Shown piece by piece: positions 22,287 through 41,947 of a stretch of 64,000 nucleotides of DNA. The stretch's first letter is position 1; every line of letters begins with the position of its first letter. The stretch comes from Promethearchaeota archaeon (GTDB lineage: Archaea > Asgardarchaeota > Lokiarchaeia > Sigyniarchaeales > SOKP01), in assembly GCA_019058245.1 (NCBI GenBank), contig JAHPZJ010000030.1:171208-235207 (forward strand), read 5' to 3'. The notes beneath the pieces are model-generated. The model was given only the letters and a program-made list of their open reading frames with translations, was not told the DNA's origin and searched no databases. The position numbers and the translations under genes were made by a program.

Positions 22287-22460
22287 ATGTTAAATCAAGT
22301 CCAACATAGAATAAGTAAATTAGAGCTCTCAATCAATCTTTTAGAAGAGCACTTGCGCAAATTTGGTCAACAAATAAAACCAGGACCTTTTAAATTTATA
22401 AAATATCAAATTGAAAACATGAAACGTGAAATCCAGATAAGGCGAGATTATCCTATATAA
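22287..22460 (+). CDS. 57-aa small helical-hairpin/coiled-coil protein (not in ORF track)
   Basis: MLNQVQHRISKLELSINLLEEHLRKFGQQIKPGPFKFIKYQIENMKREIQIRRDYPI; AAGGAG upstream; T-run downstream. Confidence 0.6.
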   Translation: MLNQVQHRISKLELSINLLEEHLRKFGQQIKPGPFKFIKYQIENMKREIQIRRDYPI

Positions 22461-25267: not shown

Positions 25268-25314
25268 TTAATTTAAAAAAAGTTAATAAAATATTAAGGA
25301 ATCTTATTTTTTTT

Positions 25315-25494
25315 TTAGTCCAGTCTTTTTTTCATTTTTAGTCTCAAGGCTTCTAGTCTTCTCTCATCTTTTGCCTCAAGACTTTCTGAAAAATCATTAG
25401 GAATGTCAATAGACATCATGACTGGAGCTTTATAAGAATCCCAATCTTTATAATAATCCAATATTAGATCAATTTCACTTGATTCTTCCTCCAA
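25315..25494 (-). CDS. 59-aa small protein, acidic N-terminus and basic C-terminus (not in ORF track)
   Basis: TTG start 6 nt after a perfect GGAGGTGA; MEEESSEIDLILDYYKDWDSYKAPVMMSIDIPNDFSESLEAKDERRLEALRLKMKKRLD. Confidence 0.65.
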   Translation of the reverse strand: MEEESSEIDLILDYYKDWDSYKAPVMMSIDIPNDFSESLEAKDERRLEALRLKMKKRLD

Positions 25495-25517
25495 GAATTT
25501 TCACCTCCATTTTTTAT

Positions 25518-25725
25518 TGAAGCCTTCACAAGGAGAATTAAATCTACAATTGACCAATTTCAAATAAATTTCATTGAGTTGTAGTTATAAAAGAGAACAA
25601 ATCAGGAAAAATTATAAGAAAGAGGTCAAGAGTTTTGATTTATTCTCTCTTAATACCACGGATTACCGGTAATACCTTACCTTGTGTCTTACACCAATAA
25701 TCCATAGTATAATGTGAAAAACTCA
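25518..25725 (-). ncRNA. Candidate structured RNA / cis-regulatory leader (closing stem plus three hairpins)
   Basis: Stems 25518-25530/25713-25725, 25653-25670/25693-25710, 25592-25604/25636-25648, 25544-25549/25579-25584; G.U wobbles only on the minus strand; TTTATATA box at 25750-25757. Confidence 0.5.
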
Positions 25726-25726
25726 T
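25640..25726 (-). CDS. Putative leaderless 28-aa uORF
   Basis: MSFSHYTMDYWCKTQGKVLPVIRGIKRE; ATG 24 nt downstream of the TATA box. Confidence 0.35.
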   Translation of the reverse strand: MSFSHYTMDYWCKTQGKVLPVIRGIKRE

Positions 25727-25929
25727 TATTTAAAATAAGTTTGAATAGCTATATAAATCTTCCCATTCCAATCCCATTTATCAAATTATTTTTAATTTCA
25801 ATAATTTTTCTCAAGGAATTAAGGAAAGAATAATTATAATGACCTTGTTTTATAGCAAATAAACTAATGATAAATTTATTAACATATATTTTTATTATCT
25901 TCAAAATAAATTAAAAGATTTATTGGGCG

Positions 25930-28900
25930 ATGAACTCCGAAAATAAAAATTATTCACAAGAAAAAATTAAAAAGGCTACGGAATTTCTTCAGAAGTCATG
26001 GTGGTTTTGTTTTTACTTAGTTATTGCTCCATTGATTATTGCTTTTTTAATAATAGTTATTTTTATTCAATCTGGAGTAAATATTTATATCTCATTAGCA
26101 TTTTCTGTTTTAAGTTTTATTTTTACACTACTTTTCTTTTTTAAAGTATATGATAAATACAGAAGAAAGCCATTTTTTCTAAATAAAGAGAATAACCCTA
26201 CAGCCAGAATTCATAGTTTGTTCTTAATTTCTATATTTTCTTTGATAATAACACCAATATTTTACTTAATTTCACTTATGAATATCCCATTTACTTTACT
26301 TCCTCTAATTAGTTATGCTATTCTTTATAATATCATCTATTATTATTATTATCTTCAACCATTAGATTATTTCAACTTAGAAGAGAAGGAGTTTAAACAT
26401 ACTGAGAATATCAAGTTAATGTTTATACAACCGTATAACTTTATAATATTTCTTAATTATTTAATCCATATCATTTTCTTAGGAATTACAGCATCTACAG
26501 AATTTTCTTGGCTTTTCAGTTTAATTTCAGATATAGCAGTCTATATACTCACTTTAGTATCAACTAAAGATCAAATTAGGAAGATTAAGGAACTTATTGC
26601 TGAGAATAAGTCAATTGTAAAAGATTTAATTGTTTTTAAAAAGAAATTTGTAGTTTGTATAGTTAATCTTCTTTTTATCTTATTAATTCAAATGCCTTTT
26701 GTCAGTATCATTATGTTCAGTCTTAGAGGTGTTCTATATTCAAGTTTAGAACTTATAAGTTATGCATTTTTAACAGTAATTTTCATCTTGTTCTATTTTA
26801 AATCTAGGTACTATATTAGTGTGTACTATAACACAAGACTTAAATTGTATATAGTATCTGATAATATCAATATTTCAAAAGAAAGTACGTTTATAGAATA
26901 TTTCAAGTATCAAAAACATAATTCTTATTTATCCGGAGTGTTAATTCTATTAATTACTATATTCTCTTTTTTAATTGAAATTCCTCTTTTAAATGTAATT
27001 ATTCTTCCTTTCATTTTTATTCTTCTTTATTATGAACAAAAATCAGATCTCTGTCCTAAAAAATATAGCAGATTTGTAGCTTTATTAAATTCAATTTCAA
27101 TATTGGCTTCTATCGCTTTTGGTTTAATACCATTGATATCTGAGATGCCCTTATTAAACTTTTTAATTTTTTGTCTTTCATTGTATTTTGTATTACAAAT
27201 TTTTGCTAGATATAAATATTTCATTAAGGATGATATTCTTTTATACCAAAATCTACTTGCTATAGCAAGTTTTATATTATTATTTTACTCATTCTTTCCG
27301 ATAGCTATTATCGAATATACAACCTTTACATCAAACCCAATAATAATTCTTATTTCAAATATACTTTTACATTCATTGATTATTTTAGTAACCTTCTTAA
27401 TTTCATTATATATTCTAGGGGTTCGATATTTTTATGCTAAGACCCCGAAATCATTTAAGACCTATATTATCATAATAAGTTTTTTAATTGAACTTGTTAT
27501 TTTTGCACTCATCAATTTTAGGAACTTTTTAGTATTGGGATTTATCAATTTTTTATATTCACTTTGCATCTCATCAATTTTATTCCCAATTGTTTTCATA
27601 GTTTTCCTTTTTGTAAATTATAGTCTAAATGCATTCAAATTAGAATATTTCTTAACCTTATGTTATTATATTTTTTGGATTTTTATTGTTGATTTCTTCA
27701 TTTCTCTGCTGATTATCTCTTTACTCAATATTTACATCATTGTTCTAATATTAGATTGTTTAATTTCATCCATTTTTTATTATTTTATATTGAAATTTGG
27801 TATGGAATTAGAAAAAATAAATGAATCCAAATTTAATACAAATAATAAAATCAATTCCTATTTAATTGGTATTGAGCTTTTATCATTATTTTTTACTATT
27901 TTTTTTATAGCTTTTCAATCTATCTCCTTAGCAGAAAATTTAATCTATTCATTATATTTATCATTACTAATCGTCGGTGGATTAGTCAATCTATTTTCAA
28001 AAATAGAAATTTTTTCGGAAGACCTCATTCTTAGAATAAATGCATTTATTCTATTATATAGCTCATTAATAGCTTTTTACTTCATTTTATTACTTACTTT
28101 TAATACAACTTATGTTTATATAGTTCCTCTACTGGTCTTTTCTACAATTTTTTACTTACCGCTTTTATTTTTGAAGAAGAAAAGCATATTCAAAAACTTT
28201 ATATCTAAGTTATTAAAAGTAAATAGTCTGCTATTTTCAGCAACATTATCCTTAATTCCCATTATTATAGGTTTGGAAATGTTCAATTTAGGATTATATT
28301 TTGATTTAATTTTTTTAATATTTTCTGTAATCAATTTTAGCTTATATATTGTATTCGCTCTTCTTGGTATTTACTATTTCTTATTGAAGAAAATCAAGGT
28401 TGATGAAAATCGAGTTAATCTGATTCTTAAATTACATATATTAATAGCAGTAATTATTGGAATTACAACGATATTTTATTATCCATTTTTTCTATTAACC
28501 GGGACATTCTATTGCATAGTATTACCATTGATTTTTATGTTCTGCTTCTTTTATATACCTCTTTTTTACTCTTACAAGAAACAGTTGTTTAATGTTAAAC
28601 TAGTTAAATTAGAAATAGTTTTAATTACTATAGCTTTAACAGGTTTATTTACTTCAATACCTTCAATAGTTAGTTTAGATTTAATAAATAAAAGTTTGAT
28701 ATTTTATTCTAAGGTTTTACCTGTAAATATTATAAACTTTTCCTTCTACATTTTCTTTATTTTTTTATTAATTCTTAGTAGTCTATTTAAAAAATTAGAA
28801 TTAAAAAGCAAATTTATTTTAAATTTAGGTAGATTACAATTCTTTACCATATTTTGTATTTCTATTACTACACTATTTTTCTACCCATTTTCATTGTTAA

Positions 28901-31900
28901 GTGGATTTTTTTATAAAATCCTTATTTCTTTCATTGCTTTATTGTCTTCTTGGTTTTTTATTTTCTATTATGCTTATAGAAAAGAATATTTCAATCTAGT
29001 ATTAGTAAGACTATTAACAATCTATAATTTTACTGTATTATCGTGCTTAATTATTTCGTTACCATTTATAATTGGATTAGAAGTATTTGGATTCGCAGCT
29101 AATTTCATCCTAATAATAACCCTAACACTATTAATTCTATTTGTTTTTCTTAATATTTTTGAGATTATCGCAAATAAAATTAAGTTAAAAGAAAGATATA
29201 TAAAATATTCTAAATTGCTTAAACCAATTCTCTTTTTTCTATTATCATTATTTTTGTCTTATTATATATCTACGATTTTTATTATTAGACTTACACTAAC
29301 TCCTATAACTTTTCTAGTGTTAAGTTGTAGCTTTTTAGTTTTTTTCTTATTAAGTATGTATACCCTGGAACTTACATTTTCCTATGATCCCAAATTATTG
29401 ACATTAAAAAAGTATAAAGATATTATCATTTATGGAATCATTCTTTCATTATCATCAATTTTTACTTTTTTAAGCATATCAACAAATATTCTTTCATCTT
29501 TTTTTCTAACTTCAATAATATTTAATTCATCTATTATAATTGGTGTTTTTACTTCATTATTTCTTTTATTTTTGATTCTGGGTGACAATTTAATAGAATT
29601 GAAATTACCGCAGGTAAAAATAATCTGCGAATTAATTGCATGGGTAATTATAAAGGTAATATTATGCATTTTAACATTTTTTCTTATTGACGTTTTTGCG
29701 TATCAATTCTTTATTGTAAATAAAATATTGCTAGTTTCATTAATTTTTACCGTTCTTACACCCTTAAGTCTTCATATATTAAAAAATCTGAGTTTAGTAT
29801 CATCTAAAAATAAATTACTAATAAAAAAACTAACTGAAATTGTATTTATTATTTCTTTATTAGGAATTTATACTGAAATTTCTTACAATTTATTAAATTT
29901 AATACCACTATTTTATCAGAACTCACTTTTGAAAATAGTATCTCTCACTATTAATCTGATTTTAATTTTATATTATTTTTCTATAAAGTATAATAGAGTA
30001 CTAGAAGAACATTCTTCACTCAATATTTACAGCTTTTATTTAACATCCTTCTTATTATTTTTCAGCTTTCTTTATTTTAATACTAATCTTTCAGTTTTCC
30101 TTATATTACTATCGTATGTATTAATTCTTTCTAAGAGGAGCATAATTTCTATTTTTCGGTTTTTATCATATTTCTTACTAAGTTATTATACTTTTACTAC
30201 GATTCTAGTAATTATAAATTTCTATGGGGTTACAATAGCGTTTAATTTAACAAATCTAAGTATATTCATCAATCTATATCTCTTAACGACAATTTTCGTT
30301 TTGGTTTTCTCTATTATTCTAAATATAAAGAAAAATAATACCCAAGAAAAATTTACATTATATTCTCTAATTTCTATACTCTCTTATGTTTCTCTCATGA
30401 ACTTTACAAATATTTTATCAATTTATAACATTACAATTTCACTTTTCATATTCTTATTCTTTATGGGAATTTACTTTCATCATCAAAAAGATGAACGTTA
30501 TAAATGGTTTATTAAGCCTTGTTTAATTTTGTTTATCTTTGACTTTATTAGCTTTCTATCATATTCATGGTTCTTTAATAATCAGATTTATGATACTTAC
30601 AATCCAATTTTAACTTTCACTCTTACTCTTAGTATAACAGGTTTTGGATTCGTTTTATTGTATAATGAGGCTCCAAGAAAATTTCGAAAGAAATTCTTCT
30701 ATATTATACTAGCATCAATAGTTATTGCTTTTCCAATCTTTATCTATTTTTTAATGATTGCGTCTTTATCAATGCCATTATTATCTATAGTTCCATTAAT
30801 AGTCGCAATAGATTTTGGTGTTTTTCTTTTTTATCTTTGTATTGCAATATATCACTGGAGGATTTCATGGGCAATTTGGAAATCTGGATGGTATGTGTGG
30901 AATATTCTACCTTTTGTTAACTTCTTTATTATATATCAAAGTTTTACTGGAATTGATGTATTCACTGACTCATTGCAATTTGGATTAATTCAAGTAGAAG
31001 GTTCATTAATAATTTCAATGATAATATGTTCTTTATTTTTCTTGCCAGTATTGTATACAAAAATTAAAAAATATTTTTTTTATATAATATTTATTATATG
31101 GGGTGAAAGTCTATTTTTACTCTATTGGGTTAACTCAAATTTATTTGTCAGTGATCTAGTATTAAGAAATTTATCTTTTGTTTTATTTTCAGTTATACTA
31201 TTAATGCCTTTATTCGCGGGATTTAAATATTGGAAAATGGTGTCGATATTTTGGCTTTTATTAACTATAATTAATAGTTTATTTTTATTGGGCTATTTAG
31301 TTTCTATTGGGGTCAATTTAGAAATGGTAATTTCAATTGACATTTTAGTTTTTGGGTTATTTTTTATTGTTTATTCATTTTTTCCAAATATAAGATCCTA
31401 TGGAGTTATATTAATAAGTGCCTATCTTATTACACTTTCAGGTATTTTCTCCACAGTTTTATTCATTTTTTATTTATTATTATTAGATCCCATATTTTCT
31501 GTGAACATTAGTTTTATCATAGTTGGTTTAAGTCTTTTTTCCTCAAAATATTTAAAATTATCGAATAGAATTATAGATCATAGTCTCTCTTGGGTATTAA
31601 TATTCAACTTAGCATGGTTAACTTTCAATACTTTCAATCTATTTCCAGGATTTGTTGTGTTTGCATTCTCTTTAGCACTAACTGTTTTTGGATTTTCATT
31701 TTTCATCTTTAATCACTACAAAATGAAAATGCCTATTAGAATTATAATTCCAAGTTCAATTATCACGATTGGGGCTTCTCTTTCAGTCACCTCTTTTATA
31801 TCTTTAATTTTTAAAGCATCCCCCGGGATATTAATCTCTACGTTTTCTTCAGTATTTATAGTATTCTTATATTTTTTAATTAAAGAATATCGATATTTGC

Positions 31901-40513: not shown

Positions 40514-41947
40514 ATGTCTGAACCATCATTAGAAAATTTGTTAAGGGATGCCAGAGTTGATCTGGTATTATCTAGAATAGAGAGTAATCCATCTGTAATT
40601 AGTGAAGTTATTAAATATTTGGATAGTTCAATAAGATCTATAAAATTCAATTCAATTAACGTTTTAGGGCAAGTAGGAGACAAATCCAAAACCGCTGTTC
40701 CTAAGTTAATAAAACTTTTAGAGGATGAGGATTGGAGTATTTGTCGAGAAACTGTACGTTCTTTGGGAAATATTGGAGAGCTTGCAAAAGATGCAATACC
40801 CAATCTATCGAAATTGCTTAATAGTAAAGAAATATCTATTCGCAAAGAAGCCGCAATAAGTCTTGGTAAAATAGGAAATCCAACTAAAGATTCAATTTCA
40901 GGTTTAGTTAAGGCATGTAATGATGATAGTGAGGAAGTTCGAACTGAAGCAGCAAGAAGCATTGGAGAACTAGGGCCAGAAGCTCAAGGATCTATACCAC
41001 AATTAATGAAGTGTCTTAAAGATGCAGATTGGGCGGTTAGAACAGCTTCTGCTCAATCAATTAGTAAGATTGGAAAAGGATCTACAATAGCCATTCCTCA
41101 ACTGATTCAATCATTAGAAGACAAAGATTGGAGAGTACAATACAGAGTAATAAATACATTGGCGGATATTGGTCGAGAAGCTGTTCAAAGCCTTTTAGAA
41201 GTATTAAACCATAAGAAAAAAAATGTCAGAATTGGAGCAATTGATGCTTTAAGTGAAATGAAAATAAGTGATCCAGAAGTTATAAATAGGTTAGCTATTC
41301 TATTAAAAGATAAAAAAGAAGCTGTACGAGGAAAAGCCGCATATGCTCTTCGAAATATTGGAAAAGATAGCATTCCAGCCTTAGTTAAAGCACTTGATAC
41401 AGCTAATAAAAAAATGCAGATCGTAATTCTTACAGCAATAGGAGGAATTGGTAAGGATGCAGCAGAGGTAATCCCCACTATTATAAATTTTCTAAAGCAT
41501 CCTGAACAAGATAATGAACTTCCACTCTCACAGTCGTTCTTTGGAAGAATAGGACAAGCATTTTCAACATTTTTTACTGATCCAACCTCAACAAAAAGTA
41601 AAATTCGTGTTGAAGCAGCAAGAACTCTCGGTAGAATTGGACCAGAATCGGAAAATGTTATAAAAGCCCTTGAAATAGCATTAAGAGATCCAAAGAAGAA
41701 TGTTCGTCGGGAAGCCGCTCTTGCGTTAGGTAAATTTGGATCATTATCAAAAATGAGTATTCCATCTTTGATCAATGCATTAAATGATAGAAGTCCAGAT
41801 GTAAGATGGAGAATTTCTGAAGCGTTGGGTAAGATAGGTGAAAAAACAACAGAAGTTGTTTCAATCCTAAATGAATTAATACATGATAAATGTGATTATG
41901 TATGTGAATCAGCTTATAATGCTCTTGATGAATTAACTGGTGAATAA
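40514..41947 (+). CDS. HEAT-repeat (PBS-lyase-like) protein
   Basis: Repeated 'P.L...L.D....VR..AA..LG.IG'. Confidence 0.9.
   Translation: MSEPSLENLLRDARVDLVLSRIESNPSVISEVIKYLDSSIRSIKFNSINVLGQVGDKSKTAVPKLIKLLEDEDWSICRETVRSLGNIGELAKDAIPNLSKLLNSKEISIRKEAAISLGKIGNPTKDSISGLVKACNDDSEEVRTEAARSIGELGPEAQGSIPQLMKCLKDADWAVRTASAQSISKIGKGSTIAIPQLIQSLEDKDWRVQYRVINTLADIGREAVQSLLEVLNHKKKNVRIGAIDALSEMKISDPEVINRLAILLKDKKEAVRGKAAYALRNIGKDSIPALVKALDTANKKMQIVILTAIGGIGKDAAEVIPTIINFLKHPEQDNELPLSQSFFGRIGQAFSTFFTDPTSTKSKIRVEAARTLGRIGPESENVIKALEIALRDPKKNVRREAALALGKFGSLSKMSIPSLINALNDRSPDVRWRISEALGKIGEKTTEVVSILNELIHDKCDYVCESAYNALDELTGE

Follow-up and report, generated by a model that had tools for sequence, protein, structure and literature searches.

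A conserved, unannotated transcription unit of a Lokiarchaeia family whose leader RNA is most likely a ribosome-read attenuator

The window analyzed here is a 64,000-nucleotide stretch of contig JAHPZJ010000030.1 (positions 171,208 to 235,207, assembly GCA_019058245.1) from a Promethearchaeota archaeon of the Lokiarchaeia. Its minus strand carries a compact unit of promoter, leaderless upstream open reading frame (uORF), structured leader RNA and a gene for a 59-residue protein. In window positions and in the direction of transcription the elements are:

25762-25777, minus strand: ATGGG-N6-ATGGG repeat adjoining BRE/TATA on the upstream side; candidate binding site of a transcription factor, subfamily-specific
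25750-25757, minus strand: TATA box, 30-33 nt before the uORF ATG in 29 of 29 close orthologues; transcription start inferred
25640-25726, minus strand: leaderless uORF of 28 codons, its stop inside arm P3a
25713-25724, minus strand: 5' arm; its partner is either 25519-25530, giving the closing stem, or 25494-25504, the 3' half of the ribosome site
25712-25714, minus strand: His codon, the sole one of the uORF (codon 5)
25653-25710, minus strand: P2, the 18-bp hairpin inside the uORF; length differs among relatives, uORF frame intact
25637-25649, minus strand: P3a, the putative switch arm with two alternative partners
25604-25636, minus strand: U-rich loop, candidate archaeal termination tract; 25612-25629 forms the 5' strand of the loop-distal helix
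25591-25603, minus strand: P3b, local partner of P3a in predicted state A
25550-25568, minus strand: A-rich segment that pairs with the loop, as a pseudoknot in state A and as the inner rod in state B
25532-25544, minus strand: P3alt, distal partner of P3a in predicted state B, complementary also to the Shine-Dalgarno site
25519-25530, minus strand: 3' strand of the closing stem in the minimum free energy fold
25501-25508, minus strand: Shine-Dalgarno site GGAGGTGA, 7 nt before the start, present in all orthologues
25315-25494, minus strand: ORF of the 59-residue protein with near-cognate TTG start, two predicted helices, flexible linker and no known family
25275-25281, minus strand: T7 run after the gene, probably the normal terminator, judging from archaeal U-tract terminators (PMC7515710)

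A first-pass annotation had outlined the unit from its letters, and every element lies on the minus strand where it had been put: the TATA box with the uORF ATG at 25726, 24 nt downstream, the closing stem, the 18-bp hairpin (25693-25710 paired with 25653-25670), the 13-bp hairpin (25637-25649 with 25591-25603) and the ribosome site followed by the TTG-started ORF. A hand count likewise reproduces nine non-Watson-Crick positions in the three long stems, eight of them G.U. The minus strand folds with -61.3 kcal/mol (z -6.32) and the plus strand more weakly with -46.2 kcal/mol (z -3.36), none of 200 shuffled sequences being as good in either case. No Rfam family matches the leader at the gathering score (best E 4.9). 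Other parts of the picture had to be redrawn. The four-stem drawing is not the fold of lowest energy, which instead pairs the 5' arm of the 13-bp hairpin with 25532-25544 to form a long rod (-66.3 kcal/mol versus -59.5 kcal/mol when the local 13-bp hairpin is enforced), and the fourth hairpin is absent from the consensus structure, its bases being the conserved partner of the U-rich loop. The uORF does have 28 codons, from 25726 to 25640, and passes through the 18-bp stem as described, but it extends beyond the stem, its stop falling within the arm of the 13-bp hairpin. On the sequence comparisons set out below the leader is better read as a two-state switch than as a fixed four-stem fold; this two-state design, the wider leader family, the near-cognate start and the His codon had no place in the earlier picture.

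An intrinsic terminator, that is a G+C-rich hairpin followed by a U-run, is not found between 25200 and 25900, and the U-tract of the leader sits within a 33-nt loop. A single 177-nt contig spanning 25498-25668 at a depth of 3.3 came from one sequencing run of uncertain type and is not taken as evidence of expression. Pairing of the 5' arm with the ribosome site is found in 25-28 of 29 sequences per pair in the RNAalifold consensus, with almost no covariation. Upstream of the promoter at least one ATGGG is present in 98% of orthologues, two copies in 59% and an inverted form in 27%, and the repeat occurs in 0% of the LeuRS and FrhB-type leaders introduced below; the TATA-adjacent intergenic repeat is single-copy in the genome. 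Many relatives (L003-L012) in addition carry an inverted TTGTCA/TGACAA repeat about 90 nt upstream of the TATA box, which is degraded in the source genome.

Promoter, uORF, leader and 59-residue gene are kept together across one Lokiarchaeia family, and the unit is thus a conserved, though unannotated, transcription unit. The protein is single-copy in 48 of 53 genomes of the genus and in 37 of 42 of the sister genus, and a broader profile finds it in 51 of the family's 68 genomes but did not detect it in 232 other genomes searched within the phylum. Named records with the protein are mostly Promethearchaeota (Lokiarchaeia) metagenome-assembled genomes, including Loki_b32; a few bear other submitter labels and are grouped in the same family here. 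The unit typically lies between a gene that appears GH4-like from its N-terminus and a convergent gene for LL-diaminopimelate aminotransferase. In most relatives the GH4-like gene is divergent and encodes 440 residues; it is missing in the source genome (window 25800-25930), where the ATGGG repeat stays by the small gene. Elsewhere in the neighbourhood, 25930-34530 encodes a 2866-residue protein in which nearly all segments are hydrophobic and whose first 1190 residues have no Pfam match, and 22287-22460 holds a 57-residue ORF with relatives in a few congeners and no family.

The 59-residue ORF is under purifying selection (dN/dS 0.29-0.40). Among 85 orthologues the best start near position +7 from the Shine-Dalgarno site is CTG in 33, TTG in 29, ACG in 15 and ATG in 8, with an upstream ATG overlapping the site also present in 15 of the 85; in the source genome TTG or CTG starts are found for 4 of 45 long ORFs led by GAGGTG. 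The protein is charged and hydrophilic and has no hydrophobic helix in the predicted model, which places helices at residues 7-16 and 39-58 around a flexible linker (pTM 0.34). It has no Pfam or NCBIfam family and no PDB relative by sequence, Foldseek found no match to its fold, VIA gave a best Z of 2.9 with an rmsd over 11, and an Atlas search had no usable match. Two long repeat proteins retrieved by a representative search are unrelated. Profile comparison links the family to the product of a tandem paralogue (E 1.9e-5) and not to a 45-residue paralogue (E 0.19). As a guess, the protein may bind a larger partner by way of a short linear motif. Could the unit instead be a type I toxin-like mRNA silenced by its own fold, as had also been suggested? 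A small ORF, a sequestered ribosome site and a weak start would suit such a reading, but the short predicted helices are not those of a small hydrophobic membrane toxin, there is one syntenic chromosomal copy per genome, and the same RNA heads housekeeping genes, making this explanation very improbable.

What makes the uORF more than a chance frame? In 85 of 85 orthologues its ATG frame stays open as far as the P2/P3 junction. Of the two alternative frames, one is closed in all 85 and the other in 84, and no stop is seen in the ATG frame where about 14 would be expected from the observed substitutions; loci cut by contig ends were left out of these counts and none was dropped for want of a uORF. 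By such evolutionary criteria the uORF is translated. The peptide itself is only weakly constrained (dN/dS 0.64-0.71), its length ranges from 23 to 32 codons, and its C-terminus has changed frame at least three times, ending just before or within P3a. Since the frame is selected while the peptide is weakly constrained and its end shifts frame, the act of translation matters more than the product. The position of the stop, by comparison, is kept: P3a begins within a few nucleotides of it in all four leader classes (medians -2 to +2). A frameshift, readthrough or intron joining uORF and main ORF was rejected: leaders differ in length in all three frames, and the main start is preceded, three codons upstream, by an in-frame stop. 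In L003, L033 and L100 the uORF/P2 module resembles that of a distant clade and switch and protein resemble those of close relatives, suggesting module exchange.

A stop placed on a regulatory sequence is reminiscent of TnaC, SpeFL and CruR (PMC12360218), and a nascent uORF peptide might arrest the ribosome there in response to a small molecule or metal, with His as ligand. In bacteria such stalls shield termination sites (PMC12360218), and His is always present in the uORF, with Cys and Trp in 81%. Unlike in those systems, however, no conserved arrest motif is apparent in the archaeal uORF, no residue stays at a constant spacing from the stop, and the frame changes at the C-terminus together with the weak constraint leave arrest by the peptide improbable.

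The two-state design rests on helices compared in 46 diverse leaders, with pairing of slid sequences (40-55%) as control; the slid control weighs more than shuffles because related sequences inflate covariation counts. P3a and P3b are paired at 92.7% of positions, 8 of 13 pairs having changed on both sides. The loop and its A-rich partner are paired at 75.5%, with 14 of 18 pairs changed on both sides and slid controls at 42-54%. P3a and P3alt are paired at 76%, with 6 of 11 pairs changed on both sides, and this helix beats shuffles in 70 of 85 orthologues. As P3b and P3alt are rival partners of P3a, their helices are mutually exclusive; all three helices covary above the slid controls. The two states are nearly equal in energy (A minus B on average 2.2 kcal/mol, the pseudoknot not counted). 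Predicted unpairedness of the loop is 0.94 in state A versus 0.25 in state B, in calculations by ViennaRNA that leave out the pseudoknot, through which the U-tract might be masked in state A as well; a run of at least five U lies in the loop of 92% of orthologues and 94% of LeuRS leaders. The cost of opening the ribosome site is higher in state A in 29 of 38 orthologues and lower in 2, with a small gap in the window (5.7 versus 5.0), where blocking P3a as by a terminating ribosome raises it from 5.1 to 12.5. State A is the first to form during transcription whether a ribosome is present or absent, and the polarity of the switch therefore hinges on kinetics. Leaders with internal deletions that lose P3alt or part of P3b (L175, L084:2566-2790) are possibly disabled switches.

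The same RNA is not confined to the 59-residue gene. A covariance model matches in 111 of 126 genomes of the family and in none of 24 other genomes searched; the scaffold was likewise not found in five genomes of other families, nor in leuA leaders. Across the family only 5 columns are invariant. All 55 further matches that were fetched and traced lie directly upstream of a gene. The switch precedes 36 LeuRS genes, where Leu makes up 59% of the last ten uORF codons (10% of the proteome), 13 FrhB-like genes with 46% Ile (proteome 11%), and 27 small-protein genes with 41% Val and 40% Leu. A Shine-Dalgarno site is absent from the LeuRS and FrhB-type leaders, in which alternative helix and U-tract are nevertheless retained. 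The source genome has a second copy at G000:C22 ~30641-30850 (plus strand; L119:2142-2376) with an Ile/Leu/Val-rich uORF, located after methylmalonyl-CoA mutase and before an FrhB/FpoF-like Fe-S gene and meaB. In one genus a tandem second cassette consists of a Val/Leu-rich uORF, the same switch and a paralogue of 59-68 residues with ATG start (L068:3006-3421, L074, L077, L079-L081, L084, L086, L087, L108, L109). At L090, L093-L098, L126, L138 and L161 Val/Leu leaders precede proteins of 41-50 residues whose last residue is a conserved Trp; a distant relative of the 59-residue protein, itself without a leader, often comes next. L160 is a bacterial-type LeuRS gene with switch and Leu-run uORF; the probable bacterial-type LeuRS gene of the source genome (C14) has no switch.

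The leader is accordingly regarded as the 5' part of a short mRNA and as a cis-acting, ribosome-read attenuator, a reading that we hold most likely from the comparative evidence, with a probability of roughly 0.7. Among the interpretations offered by the first-pass annotation the uORF-coupled attenuator is favored on account of the selected uORF frame, the covarying exclusive helices and the presence of the switch before LeuRS genes with Leu-run uORFs. A ligand riboswitch, a toxin-mRNA fold and a stand-alone sRNA fit worse, as the RNA always lies between promoter and gene, its sequence varies while pairing is kept, and the protein is hydrophilic. A ligand- or protein-binding RNA with an incidental uORF, or an sRNA, would account for the strong conserved fold with its pseudoknot potential, and a released attenuated leader could even act in trans as the S. 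meliloti trpL RNA does (PMC7968998); but the few invariant columns, the selection on the uORF frame, the match of uORF codons to the downstream gene in LeuRS members and the invariable position before a gene argue against it, and we give it little credence.

How would a ribosome operate the switch? Comparison supports a ribosome that translates the leaderless uORF, a stop on P3a and two conserved partners of P3a, and the place and dwell time of the ribosome on the uORF during transcription would select between them. In state A, the local hairpin, the U-rich loop would be open to the termination nuclease aCPSF1/FttA and the freed P3alt would cover the ribosome site, turning the 59-residue gene off. 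In state B, the long rod, the U-tract would be paired and the ribosome site easier to open, turning the gene on, with the weak start codon keeping output low. Archaeal ribosomes cover 15-16 nt from the P-site codon (PMC7261190); since P3a starts at the uORF stop, a ribosome at the last codons or the stop should mask it. In LeuRS-type leaders, whose control codons abut P3a, a starved and parked ribosome would thus mask P3a and switch the gene on. In the 59-residue leader a stall at the Ile-Lys-Arg-Glu end would likewise give on. Archaeal terminators are U-tracts without hairpin that are read by aCPSF1, and a lokiarchaeal orthologue brings about termination at U-tracts when placed in a methanogen (PMC7515710); termination by FttA is mechanistically Rho-like (PMC13681488). 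An aCPSF1 gene is present in the source genome, scoring over the cut-off.

The output shared by the family cannot be masking of the Shine-Dalgarno site, as LeuRS and FrhB-type leaders without such a site retain alternative helix and U-tract; early termination at the U-tract is the probable common output. A switch or coupling device acting on translation alone, in which the ribosome on the uORF would make the Shine-Dalgarno site of the 59-residue gene accessible or inaccessible without any termination, has its own merits: the site is present in all orthologues, both 5' arm and P3alt are complementary to it, its opening cost differs between the states, and mycobacterial leaderless sORFs provide a precedent (10.1101/834739). 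P3alt is, however, necessarily C/U-rich for pairing with P3a and outdoes P3b against the site in only 59 of 85 orthologues, and the members lacking the site retain the switch, so that we consider this alternative unlikely as a complete account. For the 59-residue leader itself termination first is the modestly favored output, masking of the ribosome site only a doubtful one, and RNA stability or another output more doubtful still.

Which signal does the leader read? At least one in-frame His codon is present in the uORF of 114 of 114 orthologues of the 59-residue leader, as against 3 of 28, 1 of 34 and 3 of 13 in the other leader classes (7 of 75 together). The codon is found at four shifting sites, namely codons 4-6, codons 9-10, the loop, and a position six codons ahead of the stop; where a lineage has lost the early His, another is present elsewhere (L344, L362, L019, L104/L360). 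Under a tree-conditioned null with independent sites and site counts held near those observed, about 20 His-less uORFs are expected, and zero was never reached in 5000 simulations with any of three windowings; this test was framed after the fact, on a tree that included the uORF, and returns small P values for Leu, Pro and Gly as well when their sites span window boundaries. A looser unconditioned test gave P 0.015, not significant after 20 tests. Several of the His sites fall on paired or conserved nucleotides, consecutive His pairs occur in only part of the orthologues, the window has a single His versus four in the source genome's own his leader, and the 59-residue gene has no known link to histidine. 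No His-containing uORF was found before hisS (24 loci) or directly before hisG (10 loci). Histidinol dehydrogenase is found in the source genome, yet in 1 of 10 congeners searched, and His supply may on that account often be limiting. Because the test is post hoc and generous to residues whose sites straddle windows, His is treated as a likely rather than an established input.

Histidyl-tRNA supply, acting via the required His codon, would then be the most likely special input. The codon lies too far upstream for a ribosome stalled there to mask P3a, and as state A forms first it would persist; His shortage should therefore turn the gene off, opposite to LeuRS members, or act as a second input added to stalling at the uORF end. 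A sensing of Lys, to which the nearby dapL pointed, was rejected as that gene is convergent and the terminal Lys is missing in half of the orthologues, and so was sensing of Trp, Cys or Pro, each missing from 5-19% of uORFs.

It could also be imagined that Ile/Leu/Val are the only signals of this leader, as they are for its paralogues, and that the His codon is a by-product of pairing and ancestry. These residues are enriched in the last ten codons (52% where the stop precedes P3a and 39% where it lies inside, versus 26% in the proteome), and the control codons adjoin P3a as in LeuRS leaders. Paralogues are far richer, however (71-85%), a single Ile adjoins P3a in the window, and the Ile/Leu/Val codons of 59-residue leaders derive from the paired P2 arm in either frame. 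Moreover, lineages without the early His do hold one elsewhere, and the loop motif is in frame when the early His is lost and out of frame when it is kept. As a full alternative to the main reading we find this rather unlikely. Overall, an involvement of His comes close to even odds as the input, Ile/Leu/Val alone appears less probable, and a response to general ribosome speed less probable again.

Other leaders of the lineage may read amino acids as well. An unbiased genome scan recovered a leaderless uORF of 33 codons with seven terminal Leu before leuA-leuC-leuD (L273:915-1016; G000:C10 ~40915-41016, plus strand); this uORF and a hairpin at its stop are kept in 29 of 29 complete loci of the family, on a scaffold that differs from that of the 59-residue leader. 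Before the his operon (G000:C30 ~141160-141220, minus strand, outside the window) a short frame without ATG but with a possible GTG start has four His in its last seven codons and a hairpin at the stop. The sister family has Val-rich uORFs before valS (L320, G055) and a probable valS (L333, G050), and Ile-rich short frames before ileS in three genomes (L304 in G055, L310 in G037, L266 in G044), not seen at the other ileS loci checked. The uORFs before leuACD, the his operon, valS and ileS suggest that leader-peptide control is a habit of the lineage, in which control codons run to a stop overlapping a hairpin arm, so that a ribosome parked there would keep the hairpin from forming and turn the gene on.

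Classical leader-peptide attenuators are leuL, ilvL/ivbL, hisL and pheM-pheST. Like these, the paralogues have control codons that match a synthetase or biosynthetic gene and helices that exclude each other, and the short 5' uORF typical of trpL, hisL and leuL is, by evolutionary evidence, translated here. In contrast to them, there is no intrinsic terminator, the control codons reach a stop that overlaps the switch arm, and the 59-residue leader has one mobile His codon and one Ile by P3a in place of the codon cluster seen in LeuRS paralogues; no Rfam leader family matches it. By analogy the leader most likely works like mgtL/corL or the mycobacterial leaderless sORFs, outside the classical class. 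In the Rho-dependent mgtL-mgtA and corL-corA leaders of enterobacteria (PMC12360218) translation of a short uORF similarly reshapes the leader to expose or hide a termination-factor site, a toggle to which the predicted change in loop exposure would correspond, whereas the archaeal leader has a leaderless uORF, an unrelated scaffold with a pseudoknot-capable loop, aCPSF1/FttA on U-tracts as candidate factor instead of Rho, and an amino acid rather than Mg2+ as the proposed signal. In the mycobacterial polycysteine sORFs, termed a 'ribulon' (10.1101/834739), a leaderless uORF also comes first, a stalled ribosome blocks a helix, several loci read one tRNA pool, and the ribosome site is masked; the leaderless uORF (TATA-ATG spacing fixed) and the helix hiding the Shine-Dalgarno site (pairing predicted) recur here. 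Unlike there, one homologous scaffold is reused with Leu, Ile, Val or His inputs, some members lack the Shine-Dalgarno site, and the 59-residue leader has no run of control codons but a single His in the window, two consecutive Cys being taken as the threshold in mycobacteria (10.1101/834739).

What does this unit mean for the Lokiarchaeia? No published paper on this leader family and no tested archaeal case of leader-peptide attenuation, a kind known from bacteria, were found in the open literature, and the coupling of archaeal transcription to translation still figures as a proposal (PMC13681488). Such coupling would become directly testable with a natural switch that ties a ribosome to U-tract termination. 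The RNA scaffold is new to Rfam, the small proteins under its control form an unannotated family, and it would be unusual for a sensor to rest on one His codon that is required yet mobile. The lineage is the closest to eukaryotes, where uORFs too gauge amino-acid supply. Tentatively, and against the odds as we see them, the Lokiarchaeia may possess a ribosome-read amino-acid network in which one scaffold gates termination by aCPSF1 and in which the 59-residue leader takes two inputs, a single position-flexible His codon and the codons located at the stop acting with opposite sign. If true, a two-input leader would drive a small effector protein with a deliberately weak start and, together with the Leu/Val-gated paralogues, would constitute an archaeal amino-acid-status response that uses neither ppGpp nor GCN2.
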